DNA of 64,000 nucleotides, from NCBI RefSeq assembly GCF_054482595.1, contig NZ_CM137008.1. One strand, given 5' to 3'. This document shows positions 38,801-41,800 of the stretch, piece after piece; position 1 is the first letter of the stretch, and every line of letters begins with the position of its first letter. The position numbers were made by a program.

Positions 38801-41800
38801 GTAACCACCTCGCGGTTAATTTCTTCCAGGATATCTTTTTCCGGCGTATGCCGGGCAGCTGTGAGAGTTTCCTTGCTGGGGTTCTCGTGATCAGTTTCCG
38901 TCAAATAGGCGTTGATATACCCCTGAAGGCGTCCCGGGTAGTGATAAAATTCAGGGTGTGCGCTTCGGATAAGTGCAAAAATAGCGGCGCGGGAATAGTC
39001 CAGAATACCCGGGGTTGCACGAAGTGCTGCGGACCATTCTTTGAACGGACTTTCTTTGTTCAGGACTACTTCTTTTGCGCGACGATAAACGCTGCCCGGA
39101 ATTTCATAAATATTAAAATCCATCGGAAGTGTGGCTGCTGCAATCTCCACATCCAGTGTGTCGAGGGTGTGTACTAAATTCGGATTGCGATCGGTTTTGT
39201 TCCCACCGCCAGCATTAGCACCGGAAGCCGTGCGGGTGATGCGTGAAACACGATTTCCTTTCATCCACTCTTTTGTCAGCAGACCCCGATCAGTGTAGTC
39301 AGCGTCCAGGTATGCTTCGAAAAAAGCAGTTATTAGTCCCAGGTCTGAATTACCAGGATTAGGGAAAACTTTGTCAGTGTCACGAACCAGTTTGTGGAGG
39401 TCGCGAATCTCCAGCGAGTCGAGCAGACTGGTTTTATGCGAAATAGCCAGGGCAGTAACAGCCGGTAGTTCTTCAGCCCGTGCAATGTGTAATGCCTGGA
39501 GTTCGTCGCGTGAAACGTGCGTTACTGGTTTTTCGCTGCCGTGTTGAGCAAGCCAACGAATGGGCAGTTCCTGACCGGAGACAGGCAGAAGCATGCTCTC
39601 CTCAATCTCAGTCATGTCTTCGCCGTTGATGTTGGTATTGTCAGTGCTGGCTGGTTTGTCCTGAACAGAGGGGGAAGGGCCGATAAATGTCATTGTGATG
39701 CCATCTTTCCCGCCTTTTTCATAGCGGTTGCAGAATTCAGTATCAAACACGCCTTCTGGCGGAAGGTCGTCAACAACGGGCAAATTGACGCGGACGGGTT
39801 TTTTAAAGTCGTCTTCATCATAATCGTTGTCATCCATTGCGGTAATGCAGCGGGAGATTGCAACAGATAATTTTTTTGCTGTAGTCCAGTAAAAACCACC
39901 TTTAATTCCCAGGCGTTTTCTTACTTTGTCATTTTTTGCTTCGCAATATAGTGCAAATTCTTCTTTATCAGTGCTCATTATTGGTAAACCTCATCACAGA
40001 TTTAAGGGTGAACAAATCTCTGCCATTGCTGACATATAAGAATGAAACTGGATATTTATTACGGTGCTGTTTTAAAATCCTGCCGGGATTTCGTTATTAT
40101 CCTGGTGAATAACTTTATCGACCGGATAACAGTTGCCTGGAATTTTCTGTTCGGTTGCTGCTGCCATACATTCCTGCTTTGTTCTGTGAACACTGACTGC
40201 AATATCAACTGGCTCTCCGGAAACAAGAAAAACCGTCAGAATAAGTGCAAATACTGGATTCATTGTGCACATCCTTTTGGCATCATACGTAAACGGGCCA
40301 GCATTGAAACAATGCATACTTTATTTAATAACTCCCGTTCGTGTTTTCTTTTGTTAATGGCATCTTCAGTAAATACAGGATTACTGATAGTGACACCAAT
40401 TTCAAAACAACCTTCAGACGTATTAACGTTTGGTAATAACGTTTTCATTATCGCGCCCTCAACAATGAGTTTTGTGATGCGGTGCCTGGTGCCTCCAGGT
40501 GACGTTAACCAGTTAACAATTAACGCCGGATACAGAGAATCCACCCATAACACTGTTTTTGGTTTTAACTGTTCCGCGTGCGCTTAGCCGCATTCACCGC
40601 ATCACAAAATTCACTTTAAAAAGGGCGGCAGAGCAGTCACGGAGTAAAACTGATACCGCCAAACGTCACCAGAAAATTGATAACAGAGGGCGTTGCAGCG
40701 GGGTTGTCACTTAAGCGTATGGTCAACCTGACAACCCGGTGTCCTCAACGGGGAAGGAATAACCCCGCCATACTTACCGCCGCGCCATTTCGCGGAGTGC
40801 CACAACCGGAAGCGCACGGTCGACGAAAATTTAACGACAGGCTATCTATGAACCAGCTACCTCGCCGTGCGCTTTCGCGTTATGGTCTGACTTTTCAGGG
40901 AAATATCCTTTCAGTAAACTGTCAGTGCCGGATGCTCACCCGTGTCCGGCGCACGCACTCCACCTCACCCGTGGAGAACTCCTTAATTACCAACCTTAGC
41001 TTCGTTGGTTAGCTATTAACGCGGGTATGTAATCATTCTGGCAATGCTTAATGCCGCTGCTTTTTCCAGATTGGTGATATCCTGCTCCAGAGCGGACAGA
41101 TTTTCAGCCTGCTTAGCCCTGGCTTCATTAGCCCATTTCAGATCCTGCGCTGCATTAATTTTCTGGCGCATCCACTCATAAAGTTCATCATCGGTATAGT
41201 CTGGCGCGATTATGACGGGTTCTCGTTTCTGCATGTCAGCTCCTTGTGGTTCGCATTGCCTGCTTTTAACCACGTCAGGCGAGGTGGTATCCTCTGAGGG
41301 GTCTGTTACTCGAGAGGAAATTGGTTATGAATACAATCAAGTTTTCTTGCCCAGAATGTGGTGGCGAAGTCTTTGACACATCCTTTAAGCCGCAGGGCTC
41401 TGACAGTTTCGCGGGAGCCATCTGCAAAAATTGTGGTCACCTTGTAACTGAAGATGAGTCCTCGCAGTTCGATGACGAAATCGTTGACAATATCTTCGGT
41501 GCACTCACCAGAGACTTTCTGAAATAAAGACGCATACCGCTTAGTTACCGCTCTGATAACTCTTACCTGTCCGGCAATGGCGCTGATGTCAATATAAAGC
41601 GCCATTGCTGCTTCTTTGCCGATCCCGTGATGCCTTCCATTCTGATGTTTGACTTCGCCCACTGAGAAATCCTCTGTTTCCCCTTAACGCCGGGGTAGCG
41701 GAACAAAAACCTGCTGCATAGTTATTAAAGTTGGACCCTGCCGTCATGTTCTTACGCCTCGGGCTGGCTACTTAACCCCTGACCACTGCCTGGTAACTCG

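Follow-up and report, generated by a model that had tools for sequence, protein, structure and literature searches.

The window analysed here is a stretch of 64,000 nucleotides (nt) of contig NZ_CM137008.1 (NCBI RefSeq assembly GCF_054482595.1), and its gene content identified the host element as a Qin/dicB-type lambdoid prophage of E. coli. Flanked by a DicA-like repressor gene with operators of the leftward operator (OL) type and by ydfC-dicF-dicB, two open reading frames (ORFs) overlap on opposite strands, at 41306..41662 (- strand) and 41327-41527 (+ strand). A first-pass annotation had reported both at these positions and treated them as a choice between two strands. We consider it probable that this ~360-bp cassette codes on both strands and that both ORFs are maintained, as a conserved antisense overlapping gene pair and not a chance shadow; the reading comes from comparative sequence analysis.

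The + ORF (41327..41527, within an open frame at 41321..41527) starts with MNTIKFSCPECGG and encodes a protein of 66 amino acids (aa) containing CPEC...CKNC (CKNCGH). It matched NF047912, the ECs_2282 family putative zinc-binding protein, with 57.3 bits (E 1e-15, profile positions 1-56 of 60), the curated cut-off being 37 bits. Cysteines C8, C11, C33 and C36 were invariant in an alignment of 19 sequences and formed two CxxC pairs in a predicted zinc-ribbon layout, which agrees with the CxxC...CxxC pattern first noticed. The + strand was annotated by PGAP in strain Ecol_881. A Shine-Dalgarno sequence, AGAGGAA (41313..41319, +), stands 7 nt before the ATG at 41327, which bears out the strong ribosome-binding site proposed earlier. 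Equivalents were present before the ATG in most clades of relatives (GAGGAGG, AAGGAA, GGAAGGA, TAAGGAG, AAGGAG) and, in good form, in four of the five remote loci described below (e.g. AAGGAAGG, TAAGGAG, AAGGAG); when start regions were compared across clades, no clear + Shine-Dalgarno was found in loci L018 and L183.

Upstream of it lies a promoter-like element (41266..41293, +), composed of a -35 hexamer TTAACC (41266-41271), a 16-nt spacer and a TG-extended -10 element TGgTATCCT (41285-41293), with a predicted transcription start near 41300. The block TT(C/A)ACC-N16-TGGTAT(C/G/T)(C/T)T was kept upstream of the + ORF in clades A, B and C1 and in L165, with diverged flanks, and we infer that it would serve as the promoter of the + unit. 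A promoter scan of the window did not flag 41266-41293, because its score was below the 9-of-12 threshold of the scan. Another conserved module stood in place of this block in several C subclades (L154, L156, L020, L161 and L166), ~30-100 nt upstream of the + ATG, with two CCCCAACAG repeats ~35 nt apart and, in some, a GC-rich hairpin before them; it could be a binding site for a regulator.

Downstream, 48 nt after the + stop codon, a hairpin with a 10-bp stem (CAATGGCGCT-13 nt-AGCGCCATTG, 41575..41607, +) is followed by a T-rich tail (41608-41620). The suggestion that it terminates the + transcript is plausible, and the hairpin is kept here as a candidate terminator: a hairpin followed the + stop in all clades except L019, with sequences that differed between clades, and a compensatory base-pair change was found in each of the two clade alignments tested (UA<->CG and GC<->AU). 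Clear T-runs after the hairpin occurred in clades B and C4 (e.g. GGCGCCGTTTTTTTAT), the T-run of the window itself being weak. The hairpin lies within the first codons of the - ORF and contains its internal ATG (41603-41605), and the predicted + transcription unit (~41300-41620) is nearly coextensive with the - ORF (41306-41662). Altogether the + ORF appears to behave as a moron-type unit directed against the early-left operon, in line with the moron idea of the first pass. In L011 a SieB superinfection-exclusion gene (2323-2823 in that locus) adjoins the zinc-ribbon ORF in the same orientation, both against the pL operon.

The - ORF (41306..41662) encodes 118 aa from the GTG at 41662, or 99 aa from the ATG at 41605. 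Its Shine-Dalgarno sequence, AGAGGA (41670..41675, -), stands 7 nt before the GTG; at the position of this GTG locus L014 has ATG, and in most other clades the start is preceded by GAGGTG, GGAGAGG or GGGAG, with no clear - Shine-Dalgarno found in L011 in the same comparison of start regions. The overlap of ~200 bases is in exact codon register, both codon sets starting at positions 2 mod 3, so that each - codon is the reverse complement of one + codon and + position 3 is - position 1. The - residues encoded at 41528-41662 fall outside the overlap. Eight of the nine Arg codons of the - ORF are rare (AGA four times, AGG, CGG twice and CGA) and mirror TCT, CCT, CCG and TCG in the + frame. The first pass had counted these rare codons as a doubt about the - ORF; they are present, but the doubt does not hold, because common + Ser and Pro codons, when read from the other strand, give exactly these Arg codons.

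PGAP annotated the - strand, as a 99-aa product, in strain STE15. The - protein matched PHROG 21318 and 29546, and PHROGs holds separate families for the two strands; Pfam and NCBIfam gave no match for it. In every annotated context read, the - ORF was codirectional with its operon, as expected from the orientation for leftward early transcription noted before, and it opens the early-left operon, downstream of the probable leftward early promoter (PL) and ahead of ydfC-dicF-dicB. The candidate role of a lambda N analogue was rejected, since the N-terminus (MGEVKHQNGRHHGIGKEAAMALYIDISAIAGQ) has no arginine-rich motif and no family model matched; nut sites were not formally searched.

Two variations were seen around the - start. 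The Citrobacter prophages L008, L009 and L010 (2995-3519 in the locus) extend the - ORF N-terminally by ~78 residues to 174 aa, with a GAGGTG Shine-Dalgarno of its own, and the gene caller skipped the identical sequence in L010. In L186 (3286-3345) and L019 (downstream of the + ORF) a strong, bidirectional-looking terminator stands directly upstream of the - Shine-Dalgarno, CCCACCGCGGTGGG flanked by A8 and a T-rich stretch in the former and CCTCGCTTCGGCGGGG followed by T7 in the latter; in these two loci the - gene is probably not simply read through from an upstream operon.

Relatives of the two frames

At 60-70% identity, searches at the protein level turned up contigs of Klebsiella and Citrobacter on which both ORFs had been called together. 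Running tblastn with the + protein on phage records led to a remote clade from phages of Klebsiella and Enterobacter, which had both frames open at ~29% (+) and 14-25% (-) identity. With two IMG/VR scans using + peptide patterns the collection came to 178 loci, all of them retrieved through the + protein. The - frame was open in all 178, from one end of the + ORF to the other and on for 72 nt or more past the + stop. The + frame carried premature stops in 15 loci (14 with E14* and one with another truncation) and a Cys-to-Ser change in one more. The allele E14* (GAA->TAA, equivalent to 41366-41368 of the window) was seen in 14 E. coli loci from IMG/VR (L062, L066-L069, L072-L075 and L077-L081); in the - frame it is a Phe->Leu change only, leaving the - ORF intact, and thus forms a natural knock-out of the + gene alone. 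A scan of genome contigs with the + peptide patterns returned three unrelated weak matches only, because the representative genomes are without the prophage.

A profile search with the - protein reached further: among 1.84 billion representatives it matched 118 clusters (50% identity). They were mostly 90-115 aa long and matched from end to end, the N-terminal part beyond the overlap included; named members came from Serratia, Citrobacter/Kluyvera and Xenorhabdus, the others being metagenomic. DNA was fetched for five remote loci which only the profile search had reached, and all five held an intact antisense CxxC...CxxC ORF. Searches of viral contigs with single remote - proteins gave no match. 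The either/or framing of the first pass is therefore not sustained: it had named homologs preserving a single frame as the outcome that would speak against its observation, and the homologs keep both, down to the identities of the remote clade and in these five remoter loci.

The contexts of the cassette vary from phage to phage. It was found after cI/dicA-type repressors, after cro (the cII position; directly so in L006 and L007), after paaR2-paaA2-parE2, in a late region between a KilA-N gene and a tape-measure gene, and beside an IS1595-family transposase; such patchy, shifting occurrence is what is expected of a moron. The transposase (Zn_ribbon_IS1595 + DDE_Tnp_IS1595) adjoins the cassette on two unrelated metagenomic contigs (L183 863-1822 and L184 3322-4272), and the L184 locus is outside any operon. 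The cassette may travel as a passenger of an insertion sequence.

Selection on the two strands

Substitutions were counted along minimum spanning trees of unique sequences, for clades A+B and for clade C separately, and omega was calculated from single-difference codons only with kappa 2.5. Changes at + positions 1/2/3 numbered 83/34/133 (A+B) and 57/23/135 (C), and such an excess at + position 3 is what coding on the + strand produces, whereas - coding would give the reverse. Between close pairs, the ratio of non-synonymous to synonymous substitution (dN/dS) was 0.07-0.11 in the + frame versus 0.9-1.9 in the - frame. Changes that were non-synonymous in + and synonymous in - gave an omega+ of 0.25-0.31 relative to the neutral rate, and three + nonsense changes were seen versus ~23 expected.

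The same constraint could be read from the other strand at greater depth. When 101 representatives of the - family were aligned and their columns mapped onto + codons, the - residues facing the four + cysteines were T/A in ratios of 65/35, 29/72, 21/77 and 20/78 (ACA/GCA being the mirror of TGY), the residue opposite the + ATG was His in 75/75, that opposite + Pro9 was mostly R with some L, W and G, and + G37 used all four Gly codons. Since the - columns mirror the cysteines and the ATG, the zinc-ribbon ORF, start codon included, has been kept across the - family.

These results decide almost entirely against the notion that only the - ORF is a gene, as first early-left cistron, and that the + ORF is a chance or shadow frame picked by annotation pipelines, which we regard as extremely improbable. 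That notion fits with the consistent orientation of the - ORF along its operon, with the - ORF being never interrupted when the + ORF has nonsense alleles, and with the PGAP calls of the - ORF in some genomes. It is contradicted by the slower change of - position 3 (83 and 57 changes) than of - position 1 (133 and 135), and it does not account for cysteines kept through fixed - third positions, for the free use of Gly codons at G37, for a + ATG kept as - His in 75/75 representatives, for the conserved + Shine-Dalgarno and hairpin, or for the low omega+.

The status of the - ORF is the harder matter. One possibility is that only the + gene is functional and that the - ORF is a shadow, perhaps translated so as to give the PL transcript ribosome cover across the antisense insert, against Rho-dependent polarity, or coupling to ydfC, but with a product that does nothing by itself; we hold this to be unlikely, though it has to be taken seriously, and several observations weigh on its side. 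The omega- in the overlap, from changes synonymous in +, was 0.77 (A+B) and ~1.0 (C), and such near-neutral values are how a shadow ORF behaves. Because omega+ was 0.25-0.31 versus 0.77-1.0 for omega-, over short times the + protein, as read from these substitutions, sets the sequence of the overlap and the - protein is close to a passenger there. Most conserved - motifs in the overlap are interpretable as + residues seen from the opposite strand (Cys as T/A, Pro as R/W, Asp as I/V), and the - ORF is rich in rare codons. There is also precedent, since large surveys found long antiparallel ORFs to be mostly shadows, and the 'NAD-GH' frame antisense to dnaK is a conserved shadow family (10.1101/724807). 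With AlphaFold2 and a 20-sequence alignment, one model of the - protein reached a mean predicted local distance difference test (pLDDT) score of 82, and the other four were poor (51-58). A need for continuous translation would by itself account for the avoidance of stops described below. Against a pair with two functional products stand also the pLDDT of the + protein, which was 61 with a zinc-ribbon-like N-terminal part and a predicted C-terminal helix, and the nonsense allele in 14 E. coli loci, because of which the + gene is dispensable in some cryptic prophages.

What a translated shadow does not predict lies beyond the overlap. Past the + stop, 25-27 - codons aligned without indels in eight lineages (L152 had a one-codon in-frame insertion), and homology ended at the - start codon. 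Variation there fell at - third positions, with single columns that use every Val codon, every Gly codon or three of the Ala codons. Omega outside the overlap was 0.28 (p 5e-9) and 0.30 (p 1e-6), and the part before the hairpin alone gave 0.30, which rules out that the N-terminal conservation is a mere imprint of the hairpin. Read-through of the + ORF, or another + frame past its stop, was ruled out by stops in other clades and by a substitution pattern that did not fit. An N-terminal - motif (hydrophobic-x-hydrophobic-D-x-S...Q..EL) was kept across the 101 diverged representatives. Neither this motif nor an omega of ~0.3 (p < 1e-6) over the 25-45 - codons outside the overlap follows from a need for translation. 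The dN/dS comparison of the frames which the first pass had proposed thus gave a divided answer, the + frame being constrained and the - frame constrained outside the overlap but near neutral inside it.

The openness of the - frame was examined on its own. The probability of finding the - frame open, with the + protein and local codon usage taken as given, was 0.04-0.40 per lineage. No change creating a - stop occurred on the trees versus ~6-8 expected, a figure obtained by arithmetic from the sites and rates of the omega analysis; a direct count of stop avoidance at TCN/CTN third positions held 10 events, too few to be decisive. With omega at 0.28-0.30 outside the overlap, a start and Shine-Dalgarno that are kept and stops that are avoided, the - ORF, as far as these comparisons go, fails the definition of a pure shadow.

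Inside the overlap, the choice among synonymous + codons gave a hint of the same kind. C36 prefers TGT and C8, C11 and C33 prefer TGC (heterogeneity p 9e-13, and p 9e-7 after thinning to <35% identity); C11 and C36 differ even with the same following Gly codon, GGN (p 5e-10), and G12 prefers GGC versus GGT at G37 (p 7e-8). In DNA taken directly from 21 lineages, C36 was TGT in 20, C8 was TGC in 18 and C11 was TGC in 17. The favoured - residues match the fold predicted by AlphaFold, whose best model is beta-alpha-alpha-beta-beta-alpha, with Thr-Thr in strand beta-2 and Ala-Ala in helix alpha-3. Such site-specific choice points to some constraint from the - protein at depth, and it is not predicted if the + gene alone is functional. 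Two considerations temper it: the sequences of the codon test were retrieved with a - profile, so that ascertainment bias is possible, and the invariant TGTGGT could be a signal at the nucleotide level and not at that of the protein. Searches for fold relatives found none, and no family match pointed to a function. Sequence searches of the PDB with both proteins gave nothing meaningful except weak CPxCG zinc-finger matches to the + protein, and PADLOC matched the + protein only weakly to PDC-M14A (best E 1.6e-5), which was not taken as membership.

Prophage setting and proposed expression

The gene to the right of the cassette encodes a DicA/CI-like repressor (41932..42351, -; PHROG 5736 'transcriptional regulator', 4e-70) which also matched DicA weakly, over the C-terminal part of the latter, and past it a YdaS/Cro-like gene and a YdaT gene lie on the + strand. 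An OL-type operator pair (41848..41894) separates repressor and cassette, with repeats ATACCCAT(A/G)GGTA at 41852-41864 and 41877-41889, which read ATACCCATAGGTA and ATACCCATGGGTA. These are related to the right-hand operator (OR) pair, two copies of ACCTGTGGGTATT at 42388-42424 between the repressor gene and the cro-like gene. Because the repeats at 41852-41889 match that intergenic pair, the ORF pair is placed just downstream of an OL/PL-type region, as the first pass had it, and the leftward early promoter is probable just left of the OL pair. The OL and OR repeats define the operators of the immunity type of this prophage; on the - strand, where it directly follows the repressor gene, the OL pair has in addition the score of a terminator-like hairpin.

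Leftward of the - ORF the operon continues on the - strand with ydfC (41016..41234), the next cistron, DicF (40623-40674; 76.7 bits with Rfam) and dicB (40368-40553, recognized by the DicB sequence). A match to the small RNA STnc100 (40471-40611, -; E 4e-6) stayed below the Rfam gathering score, with 38.8 bits versus 47; it overlaps both the spacer between DicF and dicB and the 5' part of dicB. In strain Sakai another small antisense coding sequence, ECs_5735 (54 aa; L181 10469-10633), lies between ydfC and dicB, and the equivalent stretch of the window holds a 111-aa + ORF (40677-41012) which begins just right of the DicF gene. In K-12, the Qin prophage presumably has ydfA-ydfB in the slot of the cassette.

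ECs_2282, the namesake of the + family, occupies in Sakai prophage Sp12 the same position as the + ORF, between paaR2-paaA2-parE2 and ydfC. In this related prophage (Sp12/CP-933P), the PL promoter was placed beside the paaR2-paaA2-parE2 operon and shown experimentally to be repressed by PaaR2 and YdaS, and its authors could give no function to the ORFs downstream (PMC8630535). The repressor differs from that of the window, PaaR2 being used, so that the likeness to the OL region here is one of position only.

From this arrangement a scheme of expression can be proposed. The + strand would form an autonomous moron-like unit, with promoter-like element, Shine-Dalgarno, 66-aa CPxC...CxxC zinc-ribbon protein and hairpin terminator, pointing against the early-left operon. 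The - strand would supply an ORF of ~100-118 aa as first cistron from the repressor-controlled leftward promoter, its body mirroring the zinc-ribbon gene codon by codon and its N-terminal 25-45 residues reaching past the + stop. Selection on the + protein would dictate most of the overlap, the - ORF keeping its start, N-terminus and open frame with a weaker imprint. The two transcripts are predicted to converge and to be fully complementary, so that only one of them would be expressed at a time, with the zinc-ribbon protein produced while the prophage is repressed and the - protein after derepression. DicF and DicB, encoded downstream of PL, are toxic, and + transcription or the antisense RNA might damp leaky PL read-through into dicF and dicB.

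The last point could be carried further, by supposing that the + unit is mainly an antisense RNA or a source of transcriptional interference against the PL operon, like lambda oop against cII, with its ORF incidental or secondary. In its favour are the orientation of the + unit, which converges on PL and has full complementarity to the leading cistron of the PL operon, the predicted promoter-like element and terminator that belong to the unit, and the toxicity of the genes downstream, which would supply a reason. A pure RNA role leaves unexplained the amino-acid selection on +, the conserved cysteines, ATG and Shine-Dalgarno and the avoidance of + nonsense changes, and we think it quite improbable. 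As an addition to a pair of maintained genes, and not as a replacement, an antisense-RNA role is compatible with the data.

Maintenance of both ORFs, the reading favoured here, allows a stronger form, in which the cassette would be an obligate two-protein unit on complementary codons, both products being functional and coupled, used either/or according to the state of the prophage and kept together for a long time across enterobacterial phages and some IS-associated contexts. We regard this form as conceivable but doubtful. One protein might then bind the other or act on it, in the manner of an antitoxin/toxin-like or an exclusion/anti-exclusion pair.

Comparison with known systems

The reality of long antisense overlapping genes in bacteria and phages is disputed, and according to their reports most claimed cases are novel, overprinted and mainly based on expression. 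The cassette stands out by partners of family size, their co-occurrence in every member read and separate start signals, and its two genes are evolutionarily separable because part of the - gene lies outside the overlap. The question can be put directly by recoding one strand with stops that are silent on the other. Should the obligate two-protein form be true, few ancient antisense overlapping pairs of prokaryotes or phages would be as well supported. It also heads the operon for the cell-division inhibitors DicF and DicB and may bear on silencing in cryptic prophages. At present the two strands stand in PGAP, PHROGs and other resources as hypothetical families with no link between them, either one being annotated at random. 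In the literature on ECs_2282, on antisense overlapping genes in prophages and on the dicB operon no description of the +/- pair was found.

Among regulatory RNAs, lambda oop/cII and P22 sar/ant share with the cassette a short convergent transcript complementary to mRNA of the early regulatory region, and in L006 and L007 the cassette sits at the cII position itself. Oop and sar are non-coding and cover part of their targets, whereas the predicted + transcript carries the coding sequence of a conserved protein and spans the - ORF almost end to end. The pattern of type I toxin-antitoxin systems is not matched, the antisense partner here encoding a conserved protein. Phage morons such as sieB of the lambda/P22 pL region resemble the + unit in promoter-like element, Shine-Dalgarno, small ORF, hairpin terminator and location in an early operon; morons normally lie between genes, but the + unit lies entirely inside a conserved ORF of the opposite strand, and its expression in the prophage is a prediction. 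The + protein resembles small CPxCG zinc-finger proteins (PDB 8q5b, HVO_2753-like) in its CPxCG...CxxCG layout and small size; the archaeal match is weak (E 0.003-0.08) and therefore no function was derived from it, and the name of NF047912 is silent on the opposite-strand gene.

Shadow ORFs of the NAD-GH kind (PF10712, antisense to dnaK) are like the - ORF in lying on the opposite strand, in owing the conservation of the overlap mostly to the other gene and in a near-neutral Ka/Ks. Unlike them, the - ORF runs 25-45 codons past the + gene with an omega of ~0.3 and has its own Shine-Dalgarno and start; it is a cistron in the sense of its operon, and stops are avoided despite weak codon bias.

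The closest comparison is with the antisense pairs claimed in E. coli O157:H7 and Pseudomonas, namely nog1/citC, laoB/ECs5115, ano/ECs2385, asa, pop/ompA and olg1/olg2. As their reports describe them, these too are protein ORFs embedded in antisense, argued for by ORF integrity, start signals and selection; they are novel genes overprinted inside established ones and come with expression data, where the cassette is known from its sequence. In contrast to the pairs so described, each partner of the cassette belongs to a family of ~100 clusters (50% identity), the two were found together in every member read, selection is dominated by the embedded (+) partner, and the cassette moves between phage operons.

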